DNA of 64,000 nt, from assembly GCA_964016885.1 (NCBI GenBank), contig OZ024743.1, positions 105,896,001 to 105,960,000 of the forward strand. The letters run 5' to 3'. The DNA is from Eledone cirrhosa (lineage: Eukaryota). The notes under the pieces were generated by a model. That model ran no database searches. It was not told where the DNA came from and worked only from the letters and a program-made list of their open reading frames with translations. A program made the translations under genes and the position numbers. Shown piece by piece: positions 15,555 to 64,000 of this stretch (the stretch's first letter is position 1; each line of letters opens with the position of its first letter).

Positions 15555-15589
15555 GTGGTCTTTCCCATCTTTTCCACTCTATTTTAAAC

Positions 15590-24921: not shown

Positions 24922-24979
24922 ATACTATGATCATTTCAATGACCGGGTTCCATATGAATCCGGTGATATCATCAGGTAT
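24922..24979 (-). ncRNA. type I hammerhead ribozyme motif
   Basis: AUAC CUGAUGA UAUC ACCGG..CCGGU CAUU GAAAU GAUC AUA GUAU. Confidence 0.75.
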
Positions 24980-26775: not shown

Positions 26776-26833
26776 ATGCTATGATCATTTCAATGACCGA
26801 GTTCCATATGAATCCGGTGATATCGTCGGGTAT
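26776..26833 (-). ncRNA. hammerhead motif with core mutated to CCGACGA
   Basis: Paralog of 24922-24979. Confidence 0.6.
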
Positions 26834-27785: not shown

Positions 27786-27843
27786 ATACCTGATGATATC
27801 ACCGGATTCATATGGAACCCGGTCATTGAAATGATCATAATAT
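27786..27843 (+). ncRNA. hammerhead motif (core intact, stem I mismatch)
   Basis: AUAC CUGAUGA...GAAAU GAUC AUA AUAU. Confidence 0.68.
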
Positions 27844-27889
27844 AATTAACCTTTTAAGGATTTACACCAGTCCAGCCTCCTGTTACTTC

Positions 27890-27929
<40 letters not shown>

Positions 27930-28105
27930 AGAAGCAAACGATTGCTTATTGTGATTGTTTTTGATTAAGAAAGCCAGTTTCATGGATGGTTTCAACGTAC
28001 GGTTAGGGGTAACTCCGCAAGTGTGTAAGAATTCCGTTCAATCTTGGAGTATAAAGTATAAAAGAGAAAACACGGGTAAGCATTAAGAGAAGGATTTTAT
28101 CCAGG

Positions 28106-28207
28106 TATTTACGGCCGTTTCATTGGTAAGTGCAACCTTATATTGCTATACTGCAAATAGCAGCCACTCAATTATAATTGTTGTTCACAGTCCAAATTTT
28201 CAAAATA
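28106..28207 (-). ncRNA. hammerhead motif (U3-A8 core, 75-nt stem II)
   Basis: UAUU UUGAAAA UUUGG...CCAAU GAAAC GGCC GUA AAUA. Confidence 0.65.
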
Positions 28208-28548
28208 GTAAGTTACTCTTGAAATAATTCTTAATATATAGAGAAAAATATTTATTTGGAATTGTATTTACTAGTATAGAGAGAGAGGAATCAGGAGGTG
28301 AGGGGACATACGGCATAGTATAGAGAGAGAGAGGAGGAAGGGGGAAGAGGTAGGAAGTTGAATGACAAACTCAGATGGAGGGAGGGGTAGAGGTGGAAGG
28401 ATTCATTGGTCAGTTTTGATAGCAGACTTCATGTCGTGGAGTGTCGTGAGTTAAAGAGAATAAAATTGATCATAGTGGGAGGGATGGATAGAGAGGGAGA
28501 GATTGACTATCTTACTCCACGGCACCAAATATAGAGGCACACATTAAG

Positions 28549-29162
28549 ATGCTTAACGCTAAAAAGATACATAACAACACCAAAACACAAATTTACAACA
28601 ATAACAATACAAGTACCACCGAACACAACAGAATATCTAATACACAACTACCCGCTAATAGGCAAACAAAACGTAACACACTTGTTCAGGCATCGCAGCC
28701 CACAAATAAGGCCAAAGTTGCCCATGACAAGAACTGTAACTGCCACCTACTTGAAACCTGTCCATTACAAAATGAATGTATGCAGTCTAACCTAGTTTAC
28801 CAATGCACAGTGGAATCAGACAACCAGAAATGGTATTACATCGGAGCAACTGGGAATACATTTAAAGCCCGTTGGTATACACACCGTTACGCAATGAAAC
28901 ATTCCCAGCACCGTTATGTAACCACCCTTGCAAACAAGACCTGGCAACTGAGGGAAAGTAACCATCAATACACCCTGAAGTGGAAACATTATCGAACGCG
29001 CCCCCATATCGGAGTGGTATGAGAAGCTGTCGATTATGCGACCTTCAGCTGTTCCACATCTTAAGTTCGAAGAATAGGTTACTCAACAATAAAATCGAGA
29101 GATCAATTTATTTTAACCATAGACTCAAAGAGAAGTTTTCGCACTACAAATCGAACCATTAA
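28549..29162 (+). pseudogene. PLE GIY-YIG endonuclease fragment (one frameshift)
   Basis: CNC....CPL.NEC..SNLVY.C...YYIGAT..FKARW..H...TTLA...W; PY..G...CRLC. Confidence 0.85.
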
Positions 29163-29731
29163 CCTCTTACTACCAACTTACAAACTGCATATACTTAGAC
29201 TTTATACCCTCTTATATCTAAACCCTTTAATTACCCACAAAACCAATACATATATCCCCCTCTTCTCCCTCATTCCTCTTCTATTTCTTCGTTTTCTTCC
29301 TTCCTTCCCTCCCCTTCTTGGCTATCTTTTCCTTTCTTCTTTCTCACACCCTTCTTTGCTTTTATTTTTGACGTTATTATCTTTATCTTTAATTTATATA
29401 TATATATATATATATCTTTATATCTCCCCTCCCCTCTCTCTCTCCCTCTCTATCCATCCCTCCCACTATGATCAATTTTATTCTCTTTAACTCACTACAT
29501 TCCACGACATGATGTCTGCTATCAAAACTGACCAAAAAATCCTTCCACCTCTACTCCTCCCTCCATCTCAGTTTGTCATTCTACTTCCTACCTCTTCCCC
29601 CTTCCTCCTCTCTCTCTATACTATGCCGTCTGTCCCCTCACTTTCTGATTCCTCTCTCTCTATACTAGTAAATACAATTCCAAATAAATGTTTTTCTCTA
29701 TATATTAAGAATTATTTCAAGTGTAACTTAC

Positions 29732-29833
29732 TATTTTGAAAATGTGGACTGTGAACAACAATTATAATTGAGTGGCAGCTATTTGCAGTATAGCAATATA
29801 AGGTTGCACTTACCAATGAAACGGTCCTAAATA
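29732..29833 (+). ncRNA. hammerhead motif (U3-A8 core, 75-nt stem II), partly decayed
   Basis: UAUU UUGAAAA UGUGG...CCAAU GAAAC GGUC CUA AAUA. Confidence 0.55.
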
Positions 29834-30110
29834 CTTGGATAAAATCCTTCTCTTAATTCTTACCTGTGTTTTCTCTTTTATACTATATATATATATATTT
29901 CGTTTCTGAATTTGTTTAGCAAGATTCTTTATCTGAAATCGTGTGTTGAAACCGATATTGTTATACTTTGGGAGGGTCATGTTGCCAATAAGAAATACAC
30001 ACACCAGTCGTTTCACTTCAATTTATTATAATACATTTACAATAAATTTATAAATTTATAAATTTCTGGTTGGTTGGTTGGTTCCACAACCAGATAGTTG
30101 TTTATATATT

Positions 30111-30153
30111 GTCAGAGTTCTTTAGTCACACACTCTGTGACCTCTTCAGTGAC
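30111..30153 (-). ncRNA. hammerhead motif (GAAA mutated to UAAA)
   Basis: GUCA CUGAAGA GGUCACA GAGUG UGUGAC UAAAG AA CUC UGAC. Confidence 0.6.
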
Positions 30154-30289
30154 TGGGATTCCTCTCATAAACACACACAGACACCCGGATGTGGCGCATG
30201 CACAGACTGAGCACACAACATACACACAGAAACAAAATGGCGTAGGACAGAACAAAGGAGAGGCACAGAAACAAAGAAAGGAATCCCCA

Positions 30290-30332
30290 GTCACTGAAGA
30301 GGTCACAGAGTGTGTGACGAAAGAACTATGAC
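30290..30332 (+). ncRNA. minimal type I hammerhead motif
   Basis: GUCA CUGAAGA GGUCACA GAGUG UGUGAC GAAAG AA CUA UGAC. Confidence 0.75.
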
Positions 30333-30495
30333 AATATATAAACAACTATCTGGTTGTGGAACCAACCAACCAACCAACCAGAAATTTATAAATTTATAAA
30401 TTTATTATAATAAATTGAAGTGAAAGCAACTGATGCGTGTGTTTCTTATTGGCAACATGACCCTCCCAAAGTATAACAATATATATATATATATA

Positions 30496-32083: not shown

Positions 32084-32198
<115 letters not shown>

Positions 32199-32238
32199 CA
32201 ACAACAAAGAACGCTTAGAGCATAGGTATATCTTTACT

Positions 32239-32284
32239 TGCTGACAGTGTTTCGTCCACACTATAAGTGGGACTCATCAGAGCA
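32239..32284 (-). ncRNA. type I hammerhead ribozyme motif, canonical core
   Basis: UGCU CUGAUGA GUCC CAC UUAUA GUG U GGAC GAAAC ACU GUC AGCA. Confidence 0.88.
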
Positions 32285-33680
32285 TAAAGAGTGATTACAT
32301 ATTACACAAGCAATAACAAAGCCAAGACAGAAGAATATATATGGGGATGCAATAAGTTGGGAGGGGTTTAAAGAGTAGAGTAAATAGAGTGTAGAAAATA
32401 AAATTGGAGGATAAAGAATAGTGAAAAGTAAAAAAATAAATAATAAACATTGAAGAAATAAAAAATAAACATTGAAAAATAAGCATTGAAAAATAAGAGG
32501 TGCTATCAGTCACAGTTGGGCAGGGTGCTGTTAACAAACAGTTACATACAAGCATACGCATAAGCATGAGCACCCGCATGCAACCACACAATAGGCAGCC
32601 ATATGCAACACATATAGTATAGACTAATACAAATAACATATCATGGACGAGTATGCAAAAGCTAAGAGATAAATGGTGGATATACAATGGGTACAAATAC
32701 AATGGGTAAAAGTAAGATAAACAAAGGATAAAAATAGATTAACGATAGATAAAAAATAGATTAACCATGGATAAGAGATAGAGAATAGATAAGGAATAGA
32801 CAAAAATAGATAAGATAGATAAGAGCAGATAAAAATAGATAAAAAATAGATAAAAATAGATAAAAAATAGACAAATAATATATATAAAAAATATAAAATA
32901 TAAAAAATATATATATAAAATATACAGATAATAAAGATAAAGGGTAAAGAATAAATAAAATAAAATTATATAAAATAAAATAAAATACAATGAAATAAAA
33001 TAAAATAAAGTAAAGTGAGATAAGATATATATTTTTTGAATATATTTCTTGAATATATCAGGGGCACACGAACGCCTTAAGTGTTACAGTTAGCCATATC
33101 ACAACAATCAAATGTTCAAATGAGATTTATAATCAACAGGTGCTATGTCCACACTCGATTGAGTTGACCATTGCAATGCAATGGAAACATCCCAGGTTTG
33201 GCAGTCACAGAAGTTCACACTCGAAAGTCACGGGTGTGCATTCACACAGTTGAGCGGTGGGGCAATCACAAAAGGTTCACACTCGGGCAGGAATCTATTG
33301 GTCAACAGAAGTATATCCACATCACTAGCAAGGACGTATGCAAGGAAGGTAGGTAAATTCACATGCAGCAGCAGGAACATCCATGGGCAGATAACTGAGT
33401 GTCACAACGTCACAAGGTAGCAAGCAAATTCGTTTACATCAACATGAACATCAAGAGGCAGATAAGTGGGCCGAAAGCAAGCAAGTGCAGGTGGGCTAGC
33501 CGAAAGCAAGCAAATACAGTTGGGTTAGGCGGGTTAATATGCATACTCAACAGCGCATATAAAAATAGCTTCAAAAGCCAATATCCATGAAATCACAACA
33601 TTGAGGCATCCCAAGAATATACACAACAATATGGTTAGTACGTATATGCATATACACACACCTCATGCATATATAGAGAC

Positions 33681-33786
<106 letters not shown>

Positions 33787-34876
33787 GACATATACAACCA
33801 CCTACACTCATACACATATAAATGTATATACAGACACACACGCACACACACACAGCGTAGGACACCCGGGTCAAAGCGGATATAATACATAGAAATATCT
33901 TATTAGGCTAACAAAAGGCAGAACCCACAACAGTCGCTCACACTGGTCACAGATAATATATTTTTTTCCCAGCAAAATTAATCAAAATAAATTCTTACGA
34001 GGAGATGCAGCCAAAATTAATCAAAGTAAATTCTTACGAAGAGATGCATGTCCACACGTGTAGTCGCCCGATTCAAGTGTAAACAGACCGTTAATAACTA
34101 CGGAGGGCTATCGGGGCCAAAACGTTATTTTTGGGATAATAACAACGACCGTCAATATATGGAAGGCCGATTGTTTGGCACAGTGGATGTGACCCATCCA
34201 CGCTCGCCTAGCCACCCTTAGTGCATTGGTGGGTCTATCCCAACGTGTATTTTACGGATCTGTACCTCTGTATGCGCATGAGTTATGATGTAATATATCT
34301 ATGTAGAGCGTGTACTGCGCTATAAGTTGCACAAATGGAAATCTAGCCTGTAACTGTGAGCGGACCTGTGCCATCTCGCCGTGAGCAGTAGATACGTAGC
34401 ACATGCACGTGTTACCCTCCTATTCTGTGGTTTAAGATCTACAGGCTGACTGCGGGGAGCTCTTGCCCGGTGTTGTAGTCTTTCTAGCACAATCGGCCTT
34501 CCATATATTGACGGTCGTTGTTATTATCCCAAAAATAACGTTTTGGCCCCGATAGCCCTCCGTAGTTATTAACGGTCTGTTTACACTTGAATCGGGCGAC
34601 TACACGTGTGGACATGCATCTCTTCGTAAGAATTTACTTTGATTAATTTTGGCTGCATCTCCTCGTAAGAATTTATTTTGATTAATTTTGCTGGGAAAAA
34701 AATATATTATCTGTGACCAGTGTGAGCGACTGTTGTGGGTTCTGCCTTTTGTTAGCCTAATAAGATATTTCTATGTATTATATCCGCTTTGACCCGGGTG
34801 TCCTACGCTGTGTGTGTGTGCGTGTGTGTCTGTATATACATTTATATGTGTATGAGTGTAGGTGGTTGTATATGTC

Positions 34877-34932
<56 letters not shown>

Positions 34933-36329
34933 GTCTCTATATATGCATGTGGTGTGTGTATATGCATATACGTACTAACCATATTGTTGTGTATATTCTT
35001 GGGATGCCTCAATGTTGTGATTTCATGGATATTGGCTTTTGAAGCTATTTTTATATGCGCTGTTGAGTATGCATATTAACCCGCCTAACCCAACTGTATT
35101 TGCTTGCTTTCGGCTAGCCCACCTGCACTTGCTTGCTTTCGGCCCACTTATCTGCCTCTTGATGTTCATGTTGATGTAAACGAATTTGCTTGCTACCTTG
35201 TGACGTTGTGACACTCAGTTATCTGCCCATGGATGTTCCTGCTGCTGCATGTGAATTTACCTACCTTCCTTGCATACGTCCTTGCTAGTGATGTGGATAT
35301 ACTTCTGTTGACCAATAGATTCCTGCTCGAGTGTGAACCTTTTGTGATTGCCCCACCGCTCAACTGTGTGAATGCACACCCGTGACTTTCGAGTGTGAAC
35401 TTCTGTGACTGCCAAACCTGGGATGTTTCCATTGCATTGCAATGGTCAACTCAATCGAGTGTGGACATAGCACCTGTTGATTATAAATCTCATTTGAACA
35501 TTTGATTGTTGTGATATGGCTAACTGTAACACTTAAGGCGTTCGTGTGCCCCTGATATATTCAAGAAATATATTCAAAAAATATATATCTTATCTCACTT
35601 TACTTTATTTTATTTTATTTCATTGTATTTTATTTTATTTTATATAATTTTATTTTATTTATTCTTTACCCTTTATCTTTATTATCTGTATATTTTATAT
35701 ATATATTTTTTATATTTTATATTTTTTATATATATTATTTGTCTATTTTTTATCTATTTTTTATCTATTTTTTATCTATTTTTATCTGCTCTTATCTATC
35801 TTATCTATTTTTGTCTATTCCTTATCTATTCTCTATCTCTTATCCATGGTTAATCTATTTTTTATCTATGGTTAATCAATTTTTATCCTTTGTTTATCTT
35901 ACTTTTACCCATTGTATTTGTACCCATTGTATATCCACCATTTATCTCTTAGCTTTTGCATACTCGTCCATGATATGTTATTTGTATTAGTCTATACTAT
36001 ATGTGTTGCATATGGCTGCCTATTGTGTGGTTGCATGCGGGTGCTCATGCTTATGCGTATGCTAGTATGTAGCTGTTTGTTAACAGCACCCTGCCCAACT
36101 GTGACTGATAGCACCTCTTATTTTTCAATGCTTATTTTTCAATGTTTATTTTTTATTTCTTCAATGTTTATTATTTATTTTTTTACTTTTCACTATTCTT
36201 TATCCTCCAATTTTATTTTCTACACTCTATTTACTCTACTCTTTAAACCCCTCCCAACTTATGGCATCCCCATATATATTCTTCTGTCTTGGCTTTGTTA
36301 TTGCTTGTGTAATATGTAATCACTCTTTA

Positions 36330-36375
36330 TGCTCTGATGAGTGCCACTTATAGTGTGGACGAAACACTGTCAGCA
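36330..36375 (+). ncRNA. type I hammerhead ribozyme motif (one stem II substitution)
   Basis: UGCU CUGAUGA GUGC CAC UUAUA GUG U GGAC GAAAC ACU GUC AGCA. Confidence 0.82.
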
Positions 36376-36509
36376 AGTAAAGATATACCTATGCTCTAGG
36401 CGTTCTTTGTTGTTGATTATATTACGGCTCTGTCCTCAGACATCGAGCTAACCTTATACTGCCTATTGGATAAGTGGAGTATTACACACTCCTAATCCCC
36501 TCCCTTATA

Positions 36510-38834: not shown

Positions 38835-41800
38835 TCATTCCAAAGCCTCTGGATAAACAACATTCTTGGTTTTGCCCTGTGGTGCCGCAATAAAGAGACA
38901 ATTAGCGTTCCCAACCCTTGTTGTGCCAACATAAAATTGACCATGCGAAAAGACAGGATCTGCCAGATTCAACCCAACGACTTTCAATGATTGCTCTTGA
39001 GATTTATTAATGGTCATGTCAAAACTGAGCCTGATCGGAATTTGAAGTCTTTGAAATTCAAATGGCAAATCAGTTGGGTTCAGAGGTAATCTGGGAATGA
39101 AATAATTGTCACCAGCAATTTTTCCTGACATGATTGCAACTTCTAGAACATTGGACATCATATATTTGATGATGAGTCCTGTGCCATTACTAAGTTTTGG
39201 GGGATCCAGATTGCGAAGTAGCATAACCGATGCTCCAAGCTTCAGTATCAGGTTGTGTGGAGGAATTCCCGCCTGTTCAAGACTGTTCAAAAATTCAGTT
39301 GGATAGTTCACAGCTTGGTCTTGAGAAGTGATTGTGTCAACTGATTTGTAGCATATTTTCTCTCCCGGTAACATCTCCAGCAGCCTTCAGTTGATTTCTT
39401 TCACAGCAACATTTTTAGGTGCTAAGATTGCTCGTTCACAGAGCCATTTCGGATCACATTGCCTGGTCTGAATGTTTCGAAACACACTGGCAATCAGCTC
39501 TTGTTTTGTGTCAAGGATATGGCCAAATGACAACTGAATATGGTCATTGGAGTCCTTTTCAAGAAGTCCATTTCCCAATTTAAATAGTTGGATGGCAAAC
39601 TCACTGACACCTTCGTCACCAGTTAAGTGCACTCGCATGTTGGTTGTAAGGCTCAACAGCTGAAAGCGGGGCCAGAGATAGGATGTTTTCAGACAGAGTT
39701 GACCTGATCAGCCCGAGTCCCTCGAAGAATTACAGGCAGAGTTTGTCTGAAATCACCAGCAAGAACCATTGTCACTCCTCCCATTATGCAACTATTTTCT
39801 CTCAGATCCCTTATCGTCCGGTCCAAAGCTTCAATTTCTCGTTTATGGCTTATAGTATCTTCATTCCAAATTATCATCTTGCATGTTTGCAGAAGCTTAC
39901 CCTTGGGTGAGTTCTTCTTGATGTTGCAAAAAGATTGTTCATGCCGTGTGAGATCTATGGGCAGCTTAAACATGGATTGTGCAGTTCTTCCTCCATCCAG
40001 AAGTGTTGCTGCAATGCCACTTGAGGCCACAACAAGGGCAATATGTAGCTTTTGGCGAACCTTTGCAAGCAGGAACTTTATGAGGAATGTCTTGCATGTG
40101 CCAGCAAGAGCATCGACGAAGAAAAGTCGTCCCCTCTAATTTTAAAAGTTTTCGATGATGTTGTGGTAGGCGTATTTCTGGTCATCCATCAATCGAGGTT
40201 CATTTTTATCCACAAACTTACGCAATGCTTGAATATCGTAGTTTTATCTCCTGAAAAATGTATTGCGCTACCTCCATTTCTTCATCTCACTCTGGCACTC
40301 CGCACTTAGCTAATGTGCTATTCATTGCCTGAACTCGATGGGACTGGTCACAGAGAGCTTGATTGTAAATCCTGGGGGTATATTCCATATACATATTTCC
40401 ATGATGTCTTCGGGCTAGGTGTAGATAGTCGTCCGACATATTGTTTTCGTACTCCTGCCAGAGTAGACGAGCTTCATCAATTCCACATGCTGTGAGCATA
40501 ATAGCAAATAATTGTCTTATTTGACTGGCTACTTGAGTGATGGCTGCTTCTTCTAGGCACTTCTTCCAGTGTCCATTGTCATGCAGGAGTCCATGCTGTT
40601 TACACGCTTCTTGGCATGTTGCGCATTCCCTTCCTCTGAAGCACCTAAGATCCTCAAATGACGTTGGTCCTCGAAAAGTATGCAGAGGTAGCCGTAAATA
40701 AAAACATTCTCTGTTGTTGGGATGGACATTGTAAACACCCCCATAGCATTACTTGACTTGACTTCATGACCTTCCACTAAATGACCCTGCTTTCTTCGAT
40801 TCCAGGTCTTTCAATTGGTCCAGGTGTAGTATGTTGGGATTCCAGGATATAGGAGGGATCGAGCAAATTCATCATTCTGGCAGAGTTTAAAGAAAGCAGT
40901 TAGTGTAGTGTCATGTGATGCTTGTTCCAACTGATGAGCAGTGATCTCCGTGAAGTACACTCTCAGTCAATTTTCCAGATGGACTGCTAGTTTGACCACT
41001 GTTGGGTGGCGTTGGTGGATATCAAATCCAAAGATTCGCCAGATAGCTTCATTGCTGGAGATGTATCGACCTGTTTGATACCGTTTGACCTCATCCAGCC
41101 CACCATCATTGAATTATTTTTCAGTAATAAAGGAAACCATGTCACTGCCCTTGTTGATATATTTTGTGATATATAGGATTGCCTTGACGGAGCTGCAATA
41201 CTCAACATATGATATGAGCTTTTAAAAGGTTTACACAACAATTTGTTGTTTGGGAGGACCTACTGATTGTTTATGGTCAGCTCCGCTCCTCGAACTGTTA
41301 GGCTTGCAGTATTGCCTCCATGTTCTGGTCTACGCCTACGATGAGGGGGTATCCATTATTGTCAGTCCGACTTTCCCGAATAAAAGCTCTAGGATAATGT
41401 TTGCTGCATTTTTTATCTTTCATGCAGGGAGAGGCTGGATTGATGACTCCACAAGGACCATGAATGAGTTTGGACTTGGGGTTTCAAAGAGCTCTGGAAC
41501 ACCACCTTTATCAGGCAACTTTGCTGAAATGATCTTATCAACATCATCTGGTCTTATCTTCTCCTTGCACCAGATTAGTGTGTGAGAGTGAGGAAGACCT
41601 CTCGTCTGCCACTCAATAGTGATCATCCAAGCACTAAACTCACCAAAGATTCTTCCTTCATTTAGGAGCCAGGTAAGTTTTTTTTGCTTTTAATGGGAAT
41701 CCCGAGCAATGACGTCATGTCTATTCTTTGGTTTTTGATTTTGAAATAATTTATTTGATATTTCTGACCAGTTTTAATTGCATGTAAATGTAATGAAGTG

Positions 41801-43125
41801 ATCTGGCAGGCCAAATTTTCTGACATAGGCCATTGCATGTAACGTGGTCCTCCCTTGAAGCTTGATGGTAGTATGACTGGCTGGCCAATATTTCTTGGGT
41901 CAACATCAGAATTGATGGCATCTCTAAGGTGGATGTAGTTATCTGCGCTCCACTTAGTTTGATTCCTTCGCAGAAAACCCAATCTTTCTGTTTCAATTTT
42001 GGCATACATATCCACCATAAACTGGCTGGTTACTTCTTTGAATCGCAAAATTTAGTTGGCCATACTGCCCTCAACGAGGTCATTAAGCATGGCTTGGACG
42101 CTGCAGGCTTCCCTTCCCAGCTCGAGCCGGTGGGGCTGGAGCGAGGGGACGGCAAAAGGCCAGATGGCATGACCATCTTTCCGTTCCGCGGTGGGAATGT
42201 CACTTGCACCGACACTTTCTGCAGCCGCAACCTGGTGCAGTCTGTAACTGACCCAGGTTCTGTTGCACGTCGGGCTGAGGGGGCCAAACTTCTCAAATAC
42301 CGGTCGCTCTCCGACAGGTTTGCGGTCGTTCCCCTGGCAGTGGAAACTTCTGGTGTTCTCGGTCTCAGGGCTACCTCCTTACTCACCACCATAGGCGCTG
42401 AGCTGGCCAGCCGCAGGTGTGAGCCCCGCGAGTTGGAGTGGTTTTTCCAGCGCGTCTCCCTTGCCGTCCTACGGGAAAACGCCTTCTCCATTCTGTCCGC
42501 CGGGACTGTGGGTGGGCCCCATCGCGTACCAATACATTAGTTAAATACCATTCTTTCATCTGATACAACACAATGAAGACAGTGTCATAATCTAATGTTT
42601 GCTTCCAGACATGAAATGTTAAGCATAGAATTCTTTGCAGCTGATTGATCGGCCAGTTTCTTGTCCCGTTCCTGGGCTGATCTGCCGTAGCTGAAAATGA
42701 TATCCATCTTGACCATTCCAAAGATTAGCGGATATTGGAGTGAATCATAGCCTCTATGAGTTTCACAAATTCGCTCCAATGTCCACTTCGTTTTTGCTAA
42801 ACAATCTCACGTCGTTCATGCTGTTCATCAAATATTATGATTGCAACTTCATCAGTGACAGGTGCATTGAATGTGCATCCATGTTCTGAAGCTGCGTGTT
42901 TGTCTGCCCTAATGATGATTTTACAATCTCCGGTGTTGCTCATATGCTCCAGTGCATATTTAAATACACTGATGTAGATGTGATGTTGGTTAAGCATTTC
43001 TTGTAACTTTATGACTATGTAGAACTGCAATCCACCATGGACGTTGGTACATCTTTGTTGTGCCTGTGTTTCATTTCCACCCATGAAGTAAACCTGCACA
43101 AATTTGTGAGGCTCCTGTGAAAGTG
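38835..43125 (-). pseudogene. Helitron Rep/PIF1-type helicase, heavily frameshifted
   Basis: YDSLQYPLIF, VDMYAKIETERL, ILPSSF.GGPRYM, IEWQTRGLPHSH (HUH motif), ASSGIAATLL.GGRTA, GDFRQTLPV, MTINKSQ.QSL, FSHGQFYV. Confidence 0.93.
42058..42536 (+). mobile_element. 3' fragment of a CRE-like non-LTR retrotransposon (restriction-like endonuclease) inserted in the Helitron
   Basis: GC-rich; H..LN..I...L..AG.PS.LEP.GL...DGKRPDG.T..P, AE..K..KY, P.AVET.G..G, FQRVSLAV.R.NA; TTAGTT duplicated at 42052-42057 and 42537-42542. Confidence 0.82.
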
Positions 43126-45686: not shown

Positions 45687-45737
45687 TATATATATATGTA
45701 TATATATATATAGTTATGTAATAAACAACATAGGATA

Positions 45738-45806
45738 ATTATTTCATTTACTAGAGGTTTCTTGAAAGCAAACGAAATTTGCTTTCAGTCATCAGAAGGA
45801 AAAAAA
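45738..45806 (-). ncRNA. hammerhead motif (core intact, stem I eroded)
   Basis: CUGAUGA C UGAAAGCAAA UUUCG UUUGCUUUCA A GAAAC CUCUA GUA AAUGAAAUAAU. Confidence 0.68.
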
Positions 45807-46064
45807 TCCTGGTGTATTTATTGACAGTGGATTTTAAAAACAAAAATATAATCTATATGAAAGTGAGGCTGGAAAAGAACGACGGAAAGGAAACAGAATA
45901 AATATAAAAGTAGATAAACACACATGTACACACACACACGCACAGACACACATATACATACACACATATATACACATATATATTTATATGCACACATATA
46001 TATATATATACATATACATACACACATATATACACATACACACACATATATATACATATACATG

Positions 46065-46113
<49 letters not shown>

Positions 46114-46156
46114 CCAGACATACACATACACACAAATACACAAGCACACACACATG

Positions 46157-46263
<107 letters not shown>

Positions 46264-46369
46264 ATTTCAGGTTATCAGTAATGTAGTGATAATATATCGT
46301 TACGTTAGAGATGAACAGCGTACGTGTAGGTTTGCTAAACGAGTATAAATTATATTCCGGAGAAAATGT

Positions 46370-47458
46370 AGAAAAGATGAATATAAAATGAAAGTGCTTT
46401 TTTTAAAAAGGAATTTATTAGTTATTGACATATGTTTCTGTAACAGACGGAATACCTATGTATCGCTGCTTGCGTAATCATATAATGTTAGTAAGTATTC
46501 GATAGCAAATGTATAATCAGTTGTCACTTCTTCAGAGATTTTTGGATAAATTGGATAAAATCAGAAAAATTGAAGTATTTATATTAGTAATAGAGGAAGA
46601 AGAGAGGGGATAGTATATGACAGATGGTAATTCAATTTACTGCTAAACAAGTATATAAAGGGTTTCTAGTGAGAATACCATGAGTAAATGGTTTATTTTA
46701 TCTAAATAAGAATTTTTGGGAGTGCCAATTTTAATCTATACTTGGCCAAATGGACAGTGGACAGGGCTGGTCATTTGGTGTAGTAGTATTAATTATAAAG
46801 TGTCAATTGGGGAAGGGGGAGATTTCGATTGCTACTGAATAACATCAATGCTAGTAGCCAGCTGGTATATGCATTAGGGAATTGAATTAAGAAATCAGAA
46901 ATCTCATTTTATCTATAGCAGTTTATATTAAATGGTAAATAATAGAAGAGTTGATAGAATTAAGACTAATAGAGAATGTTAATATCTATTTTGACAATCA
47001 AACGGAGATAGAGACAGGCGTTCAATCCTGGTAGTATTTATAATATGAAAATGTAGATTTTAAGCGATGGTTACAGTATAACGATCGCTCTATTCTGTTA
47101 TTTAATAAAATGTTTTGGGATTTCATAATACAAAATAATTCCATATTACATAATTTACAAAAGAAACCCTTTATATACTTGTTTAGCAGTAAATTGAATT
47201 ACCATCTGCCATATACTATCCCCTCTCTTCTTCCTCTATTACTAATATAAATACTTCAATTTTCCCGATTTTATCCAATTTATCCAAAATCTCTGAAGAA
47301 GTGACAACTGATTATACATTTGCTATCGAATACTTGCTAACATTATATGATTACGCAAGCAGCGTTACATAGGTATTCCGTCTGTTACAGAAATATATGT
47401 CAATACCTAATAAATTCCTTTTTAAAAAAAGCACTTTCATTTTATATTCATCTTTTCT
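46370..47458. mobile_element. non-coding inverted-repeat element, arms 46370-46667 / 47162-47458, with HHR-like cores
   Basis: About 297-bp arms; CUGAAGA A GUGACA..[90-nt region II in total]..UGUUAC A GAAAC/U AUAU GUC; stem I is poor. Confidence 0.8.
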
Positions 47459-47475
47459 CTCCCTCTCTCTCTCTC

Positions 47476-47527
<52 letters not shown>

Positions 47528-47725
47528 TACAATCTATATATATGCACACGTACATACACACACATACATACACACATATATACACGCATACATGCGCACA
47601 CACATATATAGATATATGTACACACGCCTACATACGCACACACACACGTGGTAAGCAATACACACATTTACACATACAGATACATACATATAAATATATA
47701 CATACATACACACATACATACACGT

Positions 47726-48413
<688 letters not shown>

Positions 48414-48462
48414 TCACTCTGTATGTAATTATGCATACAGATATATATAATTATATACACAC

Positions 48463-48563
<101 letters not shown>

Positions 48564-48793
48564 CACATATACACAACACACACATACACACAGAAATAAA
48601 TATCTATAAATAAAAAAGGTGGGTATGTAAAGGGTAAGGTAGAAAGTAGGGAAGAATAAGGAAAATAAATAACAGGAAAAAGTTTAAATATAAGGGGAGA
48701 TAAGGGAGAAAAAGAATATAAGAGTACAGAAAGTGAGTTCAGAGAGTAATAAAAATCGTAGTGGATGTAAAGCGTAGGGAACAGAGAAGAAGT

Positions 48794-49250
48794 TCAAGGT
48801 GGTTGAGTCATTGTAAGAATGCCAATCCAGTTACAGATCAGATATGATTTCAGGTGAGGACAACATCTGAAGATCTCTATCTTGGAGTTCAGGCAAGTGG
48901 AAGTGACTTTCAGTTTTGTAGAATCTCCAAATTTTTCAGTGGTACACAAAGAACAATTCTTTGTGCCCCTTTGGTATTCCCTCGAATGGTCTAAAATAGA
49001 CCAATCGATAGAGTACGGGATGTTTTTATCTTTGAATTCCCACACCTTATTTGCGAGAGCCGTTGCTGTTCTTTTATCAGAGTGTTTAAAAGAAGCGACA
49101 TGTGCATAACACCTGGTTTTGAACCTGTCCTGAGTCATGCCAACATATCGTTCACTCCTGGCTGGCTGGATGTTAATTAAAGATATCATTTTGGCCTAAT
49201 ATACAACGGATTTGGTATTACATTTGCCCTGTAATGGGCCTTCATCCGGC
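48794..49250 (-). pseudogene. PLE GIY-YIG endonuclease fragment
   Basis: PLQGKC..KSVVY, YVGMT..RFKTR..AH..SFKH...TALA..VW..K...YSIDW.I....Y..G...CSLC..EK...LN...E....CPH. Confidence 0.88.
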
Positions 49251-49303
49251 TTCCAGCCTCACTTTCATATAGATATTTTTGTTTTTAAAATCGACTATCA
49301 AGG

Positions 49304-49372
49304 ATTATTTCATTCCGATAACTGAAAGCAAATTTTGTTTGCTGTCAAGAAACCACTGGTAAATGAAATAAT
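49304..49372 (+). ncRNA. hammerhead motif (11-bp stem I, core decayed to CCGAUAA)
   Basis: AUUAUUUCAUU CCGAUAA ... GAAAC CACUG GUA AAUGAAAUAAU. Confidence 0.62.
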
Positions 49373-49463
49373 TATCTTATGTTGTTTATTACATAACTAT
49401 TAAGCTCTGTAACCTACCTAGTGCACTCTTTTTTTCTGGACCTTTCCGACGGAATTACTTATC

Positions 49464-49511
<48 letters not shown>

Positions 49512-49680
49512 CAAATGAATATATGAGGGATGAACACCGATACACGTATACATGTGTTCGAATTGCAAATGACCAAGTTAGCTAGGTTGAAAAATACTAA
49601 TTTAACATAATATAGTTTGACTGTCTCGATTTAAAATAATAAATCAATAAAAATAACAAACCTATATTGGCAATGGCCGT

Positions 49681-49760
49681 GATACCTGGACAAATTCTAA
49701 ATTTGTTTCGCAACAATTATTAAATGAAAGTTACTATTCCTGTGCACTTCTGCGGGTATC
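49681..49760 (-). ncRNA. hammerhead-like motif with core CAGAAGU
   Basis: GAUACCCG CAGAAGU GCA..UGC GAAAC AAAUU UAG AAUUU GUC CAGGUAUC. Confidence 0.6.
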
Positions 49761-50457
49761 CAGGAAAATTCGTATCTTTCACTTCAAAATACTTAAGAAG
49801 ACTGAGAAATATGTGTTGTTGAACGCACATGTGTCACAGCGCCTGACTCGTCTCATACTCGTGTCGCTAAAAATAGCAGCCGGGTTTATGAGACTAAAAT
49901 TAGCTCTACGTATGGAGCTCAGAATATCATATATTGAGTTATAAACTCGAAATAGTCTTTTACAATGAAATAGCTCAAAGTAGGGAATATTTCCGAGCCG
50001 TGTAATACAAATGAATATATGAGGGATGAAAACCGATACACGTATACATGTGTTCGAATTGCAAATGACCAAGTTAGCTAGGTTGAAAAATACTAATTTA
50101 ACATAATATGGTTTGCCTGTCTCGATTTAAAATAATAAATCAATAAAAATAACAAACCTATATTGGCAATGGCCGTGATACCTGGACAAATTCTAAATTT
50201 GTTTCGCAACAATATATTCATTTGTATTACACAGCTCGGAAATATTCCCTTCTTTGAGCTATTTAATTGTAAATGACTATTTCGAGTTTATAACTCAATA
50301 TATGATATTCTCGGCTAATTTTAATCCCATAAAACCGGCTGCTATTTTTAGCGGCACGAGTATGAGACAAGTTAGGCGCTGTGACACATGTGCGTTCAAC
50401 AACATATATTTCTCAGTCTTCTTAAGTATTTTGAAGTGAACGATACGAATTTTCCTG

Positions 50458-50537
50458 GATACCTGCAGAAGAGCACAGAAATAGTACATTTCACTTAATA
50501 ATTGTTGCGAAACAAATTTAGAATTTGTCCGGGTATC
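50458..50537 (+). ncRNA. hammerhead-like motif with core CAGAAGA and full stem III
   Basis: GAUACCUG CAGAAGA GCA..UGC GAAAC AAAUU UAG AAUUU GUC CGGGUAUC. Confidence 0.72.
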
Positions 50538-50782
50538 ACGGCCATTGCCAATATAGGTTTGTTATTTTTATTGGTTTATTATTTTAAATCGAGAGTCAAA
50601 CCATATTATGTTAAATTAGTATTTTTCAACCTAGCTAACTTGGTCATTTGCAATTCGAACACATGTGTACGTGTATCGGTGTTCATCCCTCATATATTCA
50701 CTTGTATTACACGGCTCGGAAATATACCGTTCCTTGAGCTATTTAATTGTAAAAGACTATTTCGAGTTTATAACTCAATATA

Positions 50783-50819
<37 letters not shown>

Positions 50820-50969
50820 TCCACACACGCACATTTATATATATGTGTGTGTATATATATATATATACACACATACACATATATATGTGTGTGTATATAT
50901 GTGTGTATATATATATACACATATATACACACACATATATATAAATGTGTATGTGTGTGTGTTTATATA

Positions 50970-51589: not shown

Positions 51590-51957
51590 TAATGGTTTCT
51601 TATATAGGCATAAGGCCAGCAATTTTGTCGATTAATTCGACCCCAGTGCGTGAATGTTACTTTATTTTATCGACCCGTAAGGATGAAAGGTAAAATTAAC
51701 CTCGGTGGCTTTTTAACAATGCTGCAGAGCATGGCGTCCGACACTCTACCGATACTGCTAATCCATGTCGATAATAATTGTTTCTACTTTTGGCACATGG
51801 CGAGCAATTACACAGTGTATTACTGGTACTTTATTTTATCGACCTCGTAAGGATGAAAGGCAAAGTTAACCTCGGCGGGATTTGAACTCAGACAGTAAAG
51901 GGCCGTAACTCTTTGCTGTTAAGCATGGCGTCCCACCCACTACCGATACTGCCAATG
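51590..51957 (-). mobile_element. two tandem SINE copies
   Basis: Reverse complement of the 12957 family (ggatgaaaggcaaagttaacctcggcgggatttgaactc). Confidence 0.8.
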
Positions 51958-52749
51958 CAAAATAATGAAATATGGTTATTACATCCCTCGAGTACAATGT
52001 GTAAGAATAAAGTACTTGTATATGGTTCTGTGGTGACGCGGTTCACTCTGCAACTACCTCAGTTTTGATTCAATGCCATTGTGTAAAATATTAACGAATG
52101 ACTTATATCATCATCACCGGTTAAATGAAGCGGGAGATTTGGCGATGACAACCGGAAACCATACATTTTTTTCGGATTGTAAACTTAAACCTTCATCCGA
52201 CTTTTATAACGAACTATTCTTGTTGACTTTAGTCTTTAGCACATAATTAATTTCTTCATAATGTCTATATTTCTCCCAATACTACGAGAAAGCCAGTGAT
52301 ATCAACACATATAGATTGTATAATAAGCACTAATCTGCAGCAACAAGTATAACGGTTGCAAGAGAAAGCAACAACAGTATAGTTAGGATAGATTGAAAAG
52401 AGGGGAGTGAGGCTTAAGGAGGAAATACATTTTATGTATATATAATAAGCCTATTCATTCTGCTTTTTATACATGGTTGACTGATTAAATGTCTATCTGA
52501 TTATATCCCTCACTGGCCAAGAGCACCAGTTTTTCTCCTCTTTTCAACTAATTTTAGAAACAAGGATCACCACGTCACTTATCTTGTCTCAGCTTTCTCT
52601 CAACCTAAACTACGTATTTAACAATTTCACCCACCACTTGCATTATACCGTCTATAGATCTCAATTTTTATAGCATCTATTTTATAAATTCTACCAAACT
52701 TCATCTTGTTACGGCGTGACGCTATATTCATCTGCCGTTCTACCGATCA

Positions 52750-52920: not shown

Positions 52921-54485
<1,565 letters not shown>

Positions 54486-54594
54486 AGACAAATGGAAGTT
54501 TAGTAAAATCGAAGTTTTGGCTGCGCCCAAGCTAACGATATACAATTAGGAATGTGCAGCAAAGCACACGATAACGTTGTGTCACCTTAGAGTA

Positions 54595-54790
54595 ATAACT
54601 GTTTCTACATTTGGCACAAGGCCAGCAATTACCCCAGTGCAATACTGGTACTTTATTTTATCGACCCCGATGAAAGGCAAAGTTGACCTTGGCGCGATTT
54701 GAAATCAGACTGCAAAGGTCCGTAACTCTATGCTGCAAAGGATGACGTCCGACCTTCTACCAATGCTGCCAACCCAGCGACCTTAATAAT
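54595..54790 (-). mobile_element. SINE inserted in the first direct repeat, taataa-like target duplication
   Basis: 12957-family sequence; the empty site is visible in the second repeat copy. Confidence 0.85.
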
Positions 54791-55575
54791 GTACGTTAGA
54801 CAGCTTTACAAATTGAAAATTGCGGCAGGCAAGCCTAGCCACATAATAGCAAAGCAACGAAAAAACCCATTCTGGTTAGAAAACAGACCTGGACCATATC
54901 GGACGATATTATGCAATACGTCCGTTAGGTTTCTATGAAACCGAAATCAACAATCCTACTTGCGCAATATGCAAGTTTGTGGTACTTGATGATCGAACTG
55001 TGGACATACGTTATCAACAGGTTTACGTTCTGTGCCTCAAACTGGTGTTACGTGTAGCAGTAAACTGCTACCGATGGCAGCAGTCAATGTTTCACTATCA
55101 CGTATTTTTTCCAACAAGGGAAGTAACCCCCTGTTTTTAGCGGACAAATTCACAGTGGGAACAAATGAGTTAATTCCGTTCCACAATCCGAGAAAGTAGC
55201 TCTCGACTAGACGCTATTATACAAACATAAACAATGAACCAATCAATAGAATTGACTACTGAAATTAATTAATTAATTATTAGGTCTAGGAGATAATAAT
55301 ACAAATGGAAGTTTAGTAAAACGGAAGTTTTGGCTGTGGCCAAGTTAACGATATACAATTAGAAATGTGCAGCAAAGCACTCGATAATGTTATGTCACGT
55401 TAGAGTAATAACATACGTTAGACAGCTTGACAAATTGAAAATTGTGACAGGTAAGTCTAGCCACATAATACCAGAAAAAACTAAGATAGATTTACAAGAG
55501 TTGAAGTCAGTGTTACAGCACATGTACAAAATTGATTTGCATATTACAATTGTTTTGATATCGTTCAGTTCAAGC

Positions 55576-57589: not shown

Positions 57590-57720
57590 GTGAGGTTTTT
57601 TTTTACAAAATGAAAAATAACCGAGGTGTCCTACACGAGTGAAAGTATAAGGAAAAAAGATGAAATCGAAAATGCAACTGGAGTCTTATTTTTAAAAAGA
57701 TATATATATTTATTTGGTTC

Positions 57721-57756
57721 CTTTAGCGGTTTCGCAGTTCTTCTGCTTTTCAAAAG
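57721..57756 (-). ncRNA. minimal hammerhead motif (U3-A8 core; triplet CUA)
   Basis: CUU UUGAAAA GCAG AAGAA CUGC GAAAC CG CUA AAG. Confidence 0.65.
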
Positions 57757-60700
57757 TAGAGTTGAGATGGAGGGTGTGTGGTTTTTCTCACATCTGGTTG
57801 GTCTTTGAATATTACTTGTTTTATATTGAAAAAAGTGGCTCGAAACGCCAGGTTTTTAGAGAAGTAATTTGATTGGTTGGTGAATAAGTATAATAAATTT
57901 CGCGCCATTTCGCGGTACAAAGTTCTTCAAATAAAGGAGGGGGGGGGGGGCTCAGATTGTTTTTTCCTATATGAGTGAAGTTTGGTTGGTTGATGCAGTC
58001 ACCTGAATAAGCACATCAGCTTTCGCGCCAGTTTGTTTGAATTTCTTTTAACTTAAAAAAGGTGGCTTACGAAGGCTTCTTTTTTTTTATAAATGTAATT
58101 TGATTGGTTATAAATGAAATTATGACTGTCACGTGAAAAAGTTCATTAAATTCCGCGCCCGTATTTGGGAATTTATTTTGTAGCCCTTTAGAGAATTTTA
58201 TGACACAAAAGAAAATGGACAAGAGAAATGGGATGGGGAGAATTGTTCTGGTTCAGTGAATATGGCTGGTTCGTTGGGGTATTGAAATAAAGAAAGTAGA
58301 GATATGTATGTTTATTTGTGTGCTCGTGTGTGTGTGTGTGTGTGTGTGAGTGTGTGTGTGTAGGAACATGATTCTATTAGTAGAAATGGGAGTGGGAGTT
58401 GTGTTGTGTGTATTGGTGTTATGTGTGTATGTGGGGGAGTATGTTAAGATGGAGAGATTATATATAATTTGTGTGTGTATGTGTGTAGGAAAGTGATTCT
58501 ATTAGTAGAAATGGGGGAGGGAGTAGTGTACGTGTGTGTGTGGGGGGGGGAACTATGTGTGTGAGTGTATGGTGTTTTTTTTGCGTGAGTATGGTTAGCA
58601 TGTTAAGATGAAGAGAATATATTTATTTTGTGTGTGTGTGTTTAGGAAAATGATTCCGTTAGTAGAAATGGAGTTATGTGTGTGTGGGGGAGGGGGAGGG
58701 GGGGGGGTTAGCATGTTAAGGTATTAGAGTATTAACGTATGCTAAGGTTTATTTAGTTATGATTTCTATTTTCTAAAGTAGAAGGTGTTATGTGTGTATG
58801 TATGTGTCTGTTTGGAATGTTAGCATGTTATGGTGTTGACATAATGTATATTAAACTATATTTAATGCTGGTCTATATTTTTGAATAAACATATTTTCCT
58901 TATTTATTCGTATATGTTCTGTTGCATTGTCAGCGCAAAGGTAAAATGGGAAGACTTGGAATTTGGGTGTCTTATTACTTGCACTTAGTGGTATTATGTG
59001 CACTTAGTGGTATCTGTCTCGTGGTTAGATCTCGTAATTGTTGGCGATGAACTGTCATTATGTTTATGAGTGTGTTCTATACAATCTTCATTGCTTCCCT
59101 TACATTTAATGGCATAAAGTAGATTTTTTGATCAGCAAGTGAAGTGATTTTTTACAGCATAATTTTGTCCTGACTGAAATGTATACGTGTTGCCTTCAAT
59201 GGGGTGAGTGCAGGTTCCACAATTAGAGCGACCACATTTTTTGACAGTTGGTTGTGGGTTTGTGGTAGGTAATTTGGCATTGGTGAATAATGTTTTTAGT
59301 GATTTCGGTTGTCTTTTGATTTTGATTATTTTGTGTGTTTCAAGGGCTTTTTTCATTCTACTGGAGTCTTATTTTTAATAGTGGGATGTTCTTGTGAATA
59401 GTGTTGTAAGCTTCCGCATTTCTTGGGTTGTGTGTTGTGATATATGATAGAATATTGGACATACCTTGAATTTGTTTATGTTTTCGTAATTCATCTATGA
59501 CTATTGCTTTAGCCCTTTCTATTCGATTATTTATTAGTAATGGTGGGTACTGTCTTTCGAGTAGAATTTCCTTTAATTCTTGAAGTCTTTTATTTCGCGT
59601 TTCATAATTGGAGACAATTTTGCAAATTCTTCTTGCTTGGTTAAAAGGAATGTTCGTCTTCGTGTGCTTTGGATGGTTGGAGGTGAATAGCAGGTATTGT
59701 TTGGCATCTGTTGGTTTGTAGTGTATGTCAGTTTCAATATTTGTGTCTTTTTTTAAGATTAAAATGTCCAGAAATGGGAGTTGATCTTGGCTGTATTCCA
59801 TTGTGAATTGGATGTGGTTATTGATACCGTTAGTTCAATTTTTGAAATCAGTCAGTTGGTCGAGTGTGTTGGACCAAAGAATGAGACAATCATCCAAGTA
59901 GCGTTTCCAATTCTCTGATAAATATTTGTGGATGTTCAATCCATATTTTGATTGGGACTGTTCATATATCTGTACTTCTAAGTATGCCATGACTAAGTTG
60001 GCATAAGTTGGAGCGGCTTTTGTACTGGTCGCAGTCGACGATATTTGCTTGTAAGTACTGCCATAGAAATCCAAAAGTTTTTCTGTAAGATAAATTTTAA
60101 TCCCTCGGTGATGAATCTTTTTTCTATTCTGTCTGGGATATTTCTACTTTAGAAAATAAAAACCAGAACTAAATAAACCTTAACATACGTTAATACTCTA
60201 ACACCTTAACATGCTAAAACACACACACATAACTCCCTCCTCCATTTCTACTAACGGAATCATTTTCCTACACACACAAAATATATATATTCTCTTCATC
60301 TTAACATGCTAACCATACTCCAACACACGCATAACCCCCCCCCCCCCCCCCCACACACACACACAACTCTCTCCCCCATTTCTACTAATAAGATCACTTT
60401 CCTACACACATACACACACACAAAATATATATATTCTCTCCATCTTAACATACTCCCACGCACACAAACACAACACCCATGCACACACACTCAACTCCCT
60501 CCCCCATTTCTACTAATAGAATCATCTTCCTACCCCCCCCCCCCCACCACACACAAGCACACAAATAAACATACATATCTCTACTTTCTTTATTTCAATA
60601 GAAAGTCTGAATTCTGACACCCCAGCGAACCAGCCATGTTCACTGAACCAGAACAATTCTCCCCATCCCATTTCTCTTGACCATTATCTCTTGTTTGTCA

Positions 60701-61046
60701 TAACATTCTCTAAAAGGCTACAAAATAAATTCCCAAATACGGGAGCGAATTTAATGAACTTTTTCACGTGACAGCATAATTTCATTTATAACCAATCAAA
60801 TTACATTTATAAAAAACAACCTTTGTGAGCCACCTTTTTTTATAAGTAAAAAGAAATTCAAACCCCTTTGTTTGAAGAACTTTGTAACGCGAACTGGTGC
60901 AACATTTATCATACTTATTCATCAACCAATCAAATTACTTCTCTAAAAACCTGGCGTTTCGAGCCTCTTTTCTTCCATATAAAACAAGTAACATTCAAAG
61001 ACCAACCAGATGTGAGAAAAACCACAGACCCTCCGTCTCAACTCTA

Positions 61047-61082
61047 CTTTTGAAAAGCAGAAGAACTGCGAAACCGGTAAAG
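61047..61082 (+). ncRNA. minimal hammerhead motif (U3-A8 core)
   Basis: CUU UUGAAAA GCAG AAGAA CUGC GAAAC CG GUA AAG. Confidence 0.75.
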
Positions 61083-61164
61083 GAACCAAATCAATATATA
61101 TATATTTTTTTAAATAAGACTGTAGTTGCATTTTTGATTTCATCTTTTTTCCTTATATATACAT

Positions 61165-62879: not shown

Positions 62880-63885
62880 TAAACTAAGCCCACCTTGGCT
62901 GTTGATGCACATATGTACACTATAATGATTGGAGACGTTGAGGTTCATCCGGTGAAAACTAGGATGTGGAAGATGTGGGTCAGCATATGCCGACAATGTC
63001 ATTGTAATAATGTCGAACACCAAACTGATTGAGTTGATCCGCACCACCCTCAGGGAGTACGAATCAGTAACAGGAGCAGGAATTTACCAGTCGTTGGTCT
63101 TGTATCTTGGCACATGAAAAGGCATTCCTTGCTTCCAACAGCGTCTGCCAATGCCTGGACGGACTGACAGCTTGAATTGCTAGGTGCCTGGTTTATACCT
63201 GGCCTCCAGAATGACAAAAACTGGGACAGGTGTAAACGTGCCGTGAGCGGGACCTTTCTGAGATACGCATAGGGAGACGAACCCGTCTTGCACGCACTTA
63301 TCGAGTATACGAGGATTGCTGAATTGTGGGTTTATGTATAACACTAGGAGTCCAGGGACGGACCGATATGACTATCAGCTGAGTCCATAGTGAAGACTGC
63401 CTCACCGTTTTCCCTCAACCTGGAAGGGCAGTCATGTTTTATCTGCCTGCTGGCCATGACGAAAAATGTTGTGTTGTGGACACGTCTGAAAGGGTTGACG
63501 ACAAGATGTTTCCTCTTTGTTGATGCCCCACTTTAAGAGGAAATTCAGGATGGGGAAGGAAGTCCTGCTTTTCAACAATTTTTTGAATGGTGGGTAAATA
63601 AGTTGAGTATGGCCCGAGTGAATGTATCTGTTCTGAGTATGCGCCTGTTCATTAGAGGAGAATAACTGACAGGAGGCATTCATCGTAGCCCTTATGCTGA
63701 CCATGGGCTTTTCCATGTGTAACACTCGAAAGTATCCCCTATTGGGGAATTTATTCTATTTTCATTATTACGTTTCCCTTGCTTTTTGATAAAAAATGTT
63801 TACATGCGGAAACTCACACTGTACCCTCCTGTGCTGTCCTTAATATTTTCTTAATATGAGCTCTGCGTAGTTAATAAAGAAATCG
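62880..63885 (+). mobile_element. heavily deleted Tx1-clade LINE relic
   Basis: Patches match 17570-19270 (SAYADNV, WTRLKGL, shared 3' UTR); ends AATAAAGAAATC followed by degenerate (ATT)n. Confidence 0.8.
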
Positions 63886-63924
63886 TTCTCATAATGATTA
63901 TTATTATTATCATTATCATTATAG

Positions 63925-64000
63925 GGCGATGTATTGGCAGTATCGGTAGAGAGTCGGGCGCCATGCTTTGCAGCATATAGTTACGTCCCTTTTCGTTCTG
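63925..64000 (+). mobile_element. SINE 5' part (continues beyond the window)
   Basis: ttggcagtatcggtagagagtcgggcgccatgc matches 12957. Confidence 0.8.

Follow-up and report, generated by a model that had tools for sequence, protein, structure and literature searches.

In the parts of PMC8557442 cited here, PLE insertions are described as a partial tandem with an inverted, 5'-truncated copy at its 5' end, a one-sided tail of 30-40 bp and a bias towards (TA)n. The cited part of PMC3846280 gives the same layout, with head-to-head as the usual form. According to the sections of PMC11167929 on which we draw, the PAc protein cleaves and extends both strands, and its reverse transcription begins at two internal sites, which define the tail. 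In the same sections the main substrate of PAc is the unprocessed RNA and hammerhead mutants insert normally; furthermore, cleavage was dispensable, and the cut coincided with neither the start nor the end of any RNA-seq read.

Regarding animal retrozymes, the cited sections of PMC7229834 report that circles are real for the retrozymes of coral, mussel and axolotl, with unit sizes similar to that of the insertion described below, and the copying of such circles by PLEs is a hypothesis published there. Homology of pLTRs adds to the link between retrozymes and PLEs in the cited part of a preprint (bioRxiv 10.64898/2026.07.22.740005), in which, of nine dimers of Xenopus retrozymes, one showed cleavage in vitro. 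For Schistosoma, the cited part of PMC4209133 describes hammerheads paired on opposite strands at distances of 100-700 bp. So far, co-occurrence and pLTR homology are the grounds on which PLEs have been proposed to mobilise retrozymes; mechanistic support for this link comes from a non-coding hammerhead unit bearing the marks of PLE insertions, i.e. an inverted arm, a tail-like extension, a common 3' terminus and (TA)n.

Such a unit was found in the window, which is the whole stretch of 64,000 nucleotides that was analysed. It forms an insertion of two arms in opposite orientations with the following features:

49465..49508: (TA)n target, left side
49509..50213, minus strand: left arm, a partial tandem with period 496 (705 nt, 1.42 units), whose 5' end is at the centre of the insertion and whose 3' end is against (TA)n
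50212..50213: head-to-head junction of both 5' ends, an AT overlap of 2 nt
50212..50788, plus strand: right arm, a partial tandem with period 480 (577 nt, 1.20 units)
50708..50788, plus strand: one-sided extension of 81 nt, the analogue of the PLE tail, equal to the spacing of the arms' 3' ends on the unit
50785..50816: (TA)n target, right side, followed by a degenerate AT/AC microsatellite until about 51010

The 3' ends of both arms run into (TA)n. In the left arm the tandem overlap is 209 nt long (49509-49717 corresponds to 50005-50213) and contains 3 substitutions, and that of the right arm is 97 nt long (50212-50308 corresponds to 50692-50788) and contains 6. The inverted arms are 92-95% identical to each other, and the right arm has two deletions, of 14 nt and 2 nt, relative to the left arm and to the family majority. 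The 14-nt deletion (about 50314; 49903-49916 in the left arm) takes out a small hairpin with a palindromic loop, is flanked by short direct repeats and lies a few bases beyond the preferred 3' terminus; slippage in reverse transcription or in DNA replication is suggested.

The unit has a GC content of 0.34-0.35 and no ORF, the longest Met-started frame of the repeated unit being 64 codons long. Period (480/496), GC and frame length are those of the short, head-to-tail, low-GC and non-coding unit of a retrozyme. The RT and GIY-YIG ORF of an autonomous PLE was not found, since tblastn of 14 PLE proteins against the insertion gave no match, and no extra copies of the unit were found elsewhere within the 64-kb window. 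These measurements agree with what an earlier note on this DNA had read from the letters, namely a left arm of about 1.4 head-to-tail units on the minus strand with period 496, a right arm of about 1.2 units on the plus strand with period 480, AT-rich outer ends merging into (TA)n and the lack of an ORF. It was also right that the arms start and end at different points of the unit, yet their 3' ends are only 81 nt apart. The insertion represents a new family of non-LTR retrozyme or non-autonomous PLE, and that it is a retrozyme insertion of the PLE type can be held with high confidence.

L1 twin priming, in which two primings from both sides of the target lead to an inverted 5' part and a microhomology join, is alike in these respects. 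However, the insertion lacks poly(A), a target-site duplication cannot be defined, and the two arms repeat one unit sequence instead of representing complementary parts of a transcript. With the PLE insertions in the cited parts of PMC8557442, PMC3846280 and PMC11167929 it has in common the partial tandem, the inverted 5'-truncated head-to-head copy, a one-sided extension in the place of the tail and the (TA)n target, and likewise the hammerhead in the repeat and the 3' ends downstream of the hammerhead. In contrast to the endonuclease-bearing PLEs of those sections, there is no ORF here and both arms are longer than one unit; moreover, this extension is 81 nt long, whereas the tail is 30-40 bp in the published PLEs cited and 57-143 nt in the window neighbours. 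The Chlamys MRC1 elements are likewise non-coding PLE dependants, with pLTRs and head-to-tail multicopy insertions (PMC8557442, cited part), although they are green algal and belong to a clade reported in that part without canonical hammerheads.

By self-BLAST of the window we measured ten inverted structures, leaving out microsatellite self-palindromes, dispersed SINE copies and distant cross-hits. Eight neighbours of the insertion under study are among them:

1093-2960: inverted insertion
24071-24705: inverted insertion
24723-27894: inverted insertion, a partial tandem with period 1854 plus an inverted copy, the three copies differing by 3.4-5.9%
28050-29889: inverted insertion
29955-30482: inverted insertion
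32192-36422: inverted insertion, 2-kb inverted arms, 97% alike, with a long AT-rich low-complexity interior
46370-47458: inverted insertion
57646-61157: inverted insertion coding for PLE RT and GIY-YIG, both pointing outward

In these eight of the nine other inverted insertions, (TA)n is reached within 0-17 nt of one end but only after 57-143 nt at the opposite end; in the insertion under study the distances are 4 and 77 nt (81 by alignment), and such gaps are identified as element sequence in only two cases, the insertion under study and 24723-27894. The ninth structure (45596/49524) is unreadable, because its match runs through a microsatellite. The outward coding PLE at 57646-61157 fixes the polarity of the inverted layout. 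GIY-YIG-like fragments occur in two more of the inverted insertions, and outward canonical CTGATGA motifs in two. Since the layout is found in a coding PLE and in a tandem with a 1854-nt period, writing in two directions is the local norm and no mark of a small circle. The earlier note had taken this layout for the footprint of a circular template, a claim that is not supported, as the same layout is found in PLEs generally (PMC8557442 and PMC3846280, cited parts) and in the window. The layout is no specific footprint of a circle, and this sequence cannot reveal that its RNA was circular.

Some neighbours deserve mention in their own right. The insertion at 24723-27894 is a second, larger non-coding PLE dependant, with a canonical CTGATGA hammerhead-like motif and a longest stop-free frame of 84 codons. 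Each arm of 32192-36422 has a canonical hammerhead-like motif near its outer end (32280 minus, 36334 plus). Several neighbouring inverted insertions adjoin via common (TA)n tracts. Directly to the left of the studied insertion lies an older PLE (45700-49465) with a GIY-YIG-like fragment (48794-49195, minus), nested inverted insertions and minimal hammerhead-like motifs at about 45795 (minus) and about 49310 (plus), and the studied insertion sits in its right-end (TA)n. Broken coding remnants of PLE RT and GIY-YIG are present at 4861-7112 (plus) and 58860-60104 (minus); the longer pieces of the PLE remnants have 44-60% identity to a 752-aa homologue. Pfam gave RVT_1 only, in one of six neighbouring ORF fragments, the GIY-YIG assignments coming from other comparisons, and proteins of oyster and mussel are among the named homologues of an RT nearby, so that the host looks molluscan. 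No homology was found between the unit and the PLE ends in the window.

The unit contains a hammerhead-like fold made of stem I, a long-loop stem II, GAAA, stem III and a predicted cut after GUC. Two copies and a part of a third are present:

50458..50537, plus strand: type I hammerhead-like fold of the right arm, stem I 8 bp, stem III 7 bp, predicted cut after 50529
49681..49760, minus strand: left-arm copy of the fold, core CAGAAGT, with a mismatch in stem I and, at 49746, a change of A9 that is private to it
50177..50213, minus strand: 3' portion of one more hammerhead, at the truncated 5' end of the left arm

The core of the right-arm copy is CAGAAGA (50466-50472), i.e. U4A, with A at position 4. 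Judging from its changes, the left-arm copy is likely dead. The left arm extends 29 nt beyond the second predicted cut site. A relaxed hammerhead descriptor that allowed one core mismatch, and was defined only after the motif had been seen, matched none of 3000 dinucleotide shuffles of the unit; a relaxed script matched 2 of 20 arms in the window and missed clear motifs, and was not used for counting. CTGANGA was found on neither strand of the insertion, which means that the canonical CUGANGA core is absent. In the whole window Rfam gave no match at gathering score, and at E<=10 over 49400-50900 it gave 51 matches, none of them to a hammerhead and nearly all to miRNA-type models on microsatellites. 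A hammerhead in rearranged order was rejected, because it requires a CUGANGA box, absent from both strands. The earlier note had proposed one hammerhead-like motif per unit; the type I fold can be retained, but the core reads CAGAAGA or CAGAAGT and Rfam does not recognise it. The insertion would be a core-variant member of the retrozymes, with a putative hammerhead function.

Like the animal non-LTR retrozymes in the cited parts of PMC7229834 and bioRxiv 10.64898/2026.07.22.740005, it has a non-coding head-to-tail unit with one type I hammerhead-like fold, a GC of about 34%, multiple copies and a PLE-rich genome, and the unit size falls inside the range of 51-972 bp given in that part of the preprint. 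Unlike them, it has a CAGAAGA core and not CUGANGA, a stem III of 7 bp and a long loop II. Furthermore, 1.2-1.4 units per arm fall short of the rule for 'active' elements in the cited part of the preprint, which asks for a complete motif in each of two consecutive units. Retrozymes with a tail and head-to-head arms are not described in the cited parts of these two sources, and no published description of such retrozyme insertions was found in the literature searched, mostly open-access main texts.

Other copies of the family were found in public sequencing runs. A word search listed nine runs, none recorded as RNA, with a best share of words of 0.29, and organism A may be a relative of the window's species and not that species itself. 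The records matching the unit numbered 1436, 1427, 1713, 1429 and 1703 in five runs of organism A and 17 in a run of organism B, these records not being loci. DNA pattern scans in metagenome and viral contigs gave no match. The insertion is a multi-copy, non-coding hammerhead-type retroelement and no local duplication. The earlier note had named two findings that would speak against its reading, a single-copy local duplication and fixed termini; the former does not apply to a family that is multi-copy in the runs, and the latter holds in part, for the 3' end, whose terminus recurs in other copies.

Actually, 118 reads of run X8 enter (TA)n at 49924, which corresponds to 50788 of the right arm. 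Of the X8 reads at this terminus, most carry alleles absent from this locus (at 49949, 133 of 138 reads of the plus strand; at 49942, 124 of 140). The switch to (TA)n comes about 13 nt earlier in 11 contigs of X1 and 7 of X3, two runs of one sample. The AT-rich stretch around the outer 3' end thus holds a preferred terminus. Of the two putative start sites that bound the 81-nt extension, the outer one recurs, and no recurrence of the inner one (+180) was found among the matches listed for other family copies.

Inverted repeats beside microsatellites are error-prone in assembly, and one may think of an assembly artefact, of a DNA-level rearrangement (a local tandem plus a fold-back duplication) or of a MITE-like element. 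However, overlapping contigs and joints of other copies close the unit into a ring, no single piece spanning the ring; joints that go back by 480 or 496 do not prove a tandem alone, because the query cut points lie inside a high-depth region. Moreover, where the two arms disagree, the base of the family majority is found in one arm at some sites and in the other at others, and the outer ends are unequal by 81 nt, whereas a fold-back would be symmetric. This explanation is largely refuted, and we give it hardly any credit.

Relatives cover the 260 nt that follow the predicted cut more deeply than the sequence preceding it, the median ratio being 5.3 in X2 and 2.0 in X8; depth of this kind is not copy number. 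In most RAD reads of the relatives (105 of 179 molecules in one set and 145 of 185 in another), the match ends at 50522 / 49696, 7 nt upstream of that cut, and the continuations of the reads beyond this point are heterogeneous. The stops could be due to truncation at cut RNA, or to subfamilies with the downstream part only. The template might also have been a hammerhead-cut linear monomer on which the RT, having reached the 5' end, continued at the 3' end of that molecule or of another one. Such a jump would fit the higher downstream depth and the many reads that stop near the cut; a jump between molecules would in addition explain the discordant site discussed below. However, the reads stop 7 nt from the cut and not at it, and indels are present at none of the three cut-site crossings here, nor at 50529/50530 among the indels listed. 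We consider such a jump improbable.

The change at 49746 is private to this locus, A9 being read instead in 5952 of 5960 depth units (X2) and in 55 of 55 reads (X8). At position 4, five bases from 49746, there is no variant among the best 40 of 50 sites listed at at least 30%, and CAGAAGA is also read in a loose end from 7 contigs. A4, i.e. the U4A core, is the family state. Among the matches listed, which are unphased, the changes of the family are in loops II/III or compatible with pairing in stems I/III. The fold appears to be conserved in the family, which suggests that the hammerhead is or was cut. Single changes in CUGA give low activity in a type III hammerhead (PMC9901934, cited part), and U4C is a natural variant of position 4, weak in vitro yet sufficient in vivo (PMC3088659, cited part). 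Self-cleavage of the U4A core is predicted to be weak, and a core of this kind throughout the family would mean fewer circles. If it cleaves, it would extend the known natural hammerhead variants; no natural U4A hammerhead was found in the literature searched, mostly open-access main texts, and supplementary tables could hold one (PMC3088659 Figs S6-S7, PMC4209133, bioRxiv 10.64898/2026.07.22.740005).

Regarding the divergence within the arms, it is unequal (3/209 in the left against 6/97 in the right, p=0.03) when different regions are compared, whereas tests on the same region are not significant (p=0.34 and 0.50). A star-like origin from one monomer is not rejected (region A, p=0.20 by chi-square and p=0.09 by binomial; region B, p=0.61). 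Polarised against the family majority, for which only the matches listed at at least 85% were used, the private changes are 10 in 496 nt in the left unit and 9 plus 2 deletions in 480 nt in the right one. Three states are common to both arms against family majorities of 86-99.8%; at 50041/50671 the shared rare state accounts for at most 3% of the depth of the family, and at 50102/50610 for about 3-9%. Given the similar private loads of about 2% and the shared rare alleles, both arms likely come from one event and one source, each having decayed by about 2% since. The unequal divergence was also tried as proof of two templates and rejected, as it failed the same-region tests, the star tests and the polarisation against the family.

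These figures also bear on other routes to the inverted arm, either self-priming on an antisense template, argued in the cited part of PMC3846280 from head-to-head repeats with junction palindromes, or two separate insertions of one subfamily. The p=0.03 would favour such a route, but it comes from different regions, and the private loads are similar. Furthermore, the starting points of the two arms on the unit bear no relation to each other, and the junction has neither mirror symmetry nor (TA)n. We regard these routes as quite improbable.

The reading that we tentatively prefer, with slightly less than an even chance, is that of a decayed two-armed retrozyme copy, written by a PLE into (TA)n from both cut ends on an uncut linear multimer. 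It starts from what is observed directly, namely the layout, the family membership, the common 3' terminus and the core sequence, and it is compatible with the orientation of the arms, which run outward from a single junction as expected of two primings. A GIY-YIG/RT protein of a PLE, acting in trans, would nick both strands of the (TA)n target, and from each 3' end cDNA synthesis would be primed at either of two favoured positions within the RNA, about 180 or about 259 nt downstream of the cut. Each reverse transcription would then read upstream through the uncut hammerhead, twice in the left arm and once in the right, and stop arbitrarily; the two cDNA ends would join by the 2-nt microhomology, and the decay of about 2% per arm would come afterwards.

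The linear multimer as template is itself put forward with reserve, its chances being a shade below even. In its favour are the family-wide U4A core, together with the low activity of single changes in CUGA (PMC9901934, cited part), the 1854-nt-period tandem at 24723-27894 with the same layout, and the discordant site 50116/49620/50596. At this site, a single one that was noticed post hoc, T stands at 49620 (left arm, outer copy) and at 50596 (right arm), whereas 50116, in the inner copy of the left arm, reads G like most of the family. This is expected if neighbouring units of the template already differed, whereas a single circle needs gene conversion or a back-change to the family-majority base in one copy. 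Against the linear multimer are the star tree, which is not rejected, and the three of three crossings of the predicted cut without a scar, which fit a circle equally well. In addition, the circular unit folds better than shuffles (z -2.7 and -3.5, 60 shuffles each), the fold appears conserved, and the relatives' stops 7 nt upstream of the cut could mean cleaved linear templates.

With the same two-ended PLE priming, the template could instead have been a ligated circular monomer, rolled for more than one turn from fixed start sites, which we consider possible but somewhat unlikely. It would account for both arms being longer than one unit and for the cut site crossed without a scar, and the star tree, the rare states common to the arms and the similar private loads agree with it. 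Circles have been shown for other animal retrozymes (PMC7229834, cited part), and a circle would regenerate multimers, which linear copying with 5' truncation could not do alone. On the other hand, the U4A core predicts weak cleavage, the discordant site needs its back-change, and coding and multi-kb PLEs show the same layout; cleavage is dispensable for PAc (PMC11167929) and one of nine Xenopus dimers cleaved (bioRxiv 10.64898/2026.07.22.740005), both according to the parts cited. The earlier note had proposed rolling reverse transcription of a small circle from two primed ends; the arms agree with two primings, and the circle is the less probable template. Being an old locus with short arms, the insertion is a poor test of circle against linear template, and younger and longer arrays would be a better one.

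Spelled out in full, the circular account would have an RNA of about 490 nt, whose natural U4A hammerhead is active only when helped by a protein, being cut, circularised and copied in rolling fashion by a Penelope-type RT that is primed at both ends of the (TA)n break and starts at two fixed sites, and in this form we find it unlikely. If the circle reading is true, the locus would be direct genomic evidence for the proposed route of animal retrozyme circles back into the genome, and its core would be a new functional hammerhead variant.

Finally, other repeats were observed in the window. An uninterrupted frame of 1204 aa at 15395-19009 (plus), which resembles an endonuclease-RT LINE ORF2, is preceded by a frame of 702 aa, and broken copies related to it are present at 52923-54118 and 62930-63922. 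The fragments at 38835-42051 (minus) resemble a Helitron Rep/PIF1 helicase. A dispersed SINE-like repeat, which we assume to resemble an octopus SINE, occurs at 796-904, 12953-13118, 51642-51960, 54593-54791 and 63917-64000.
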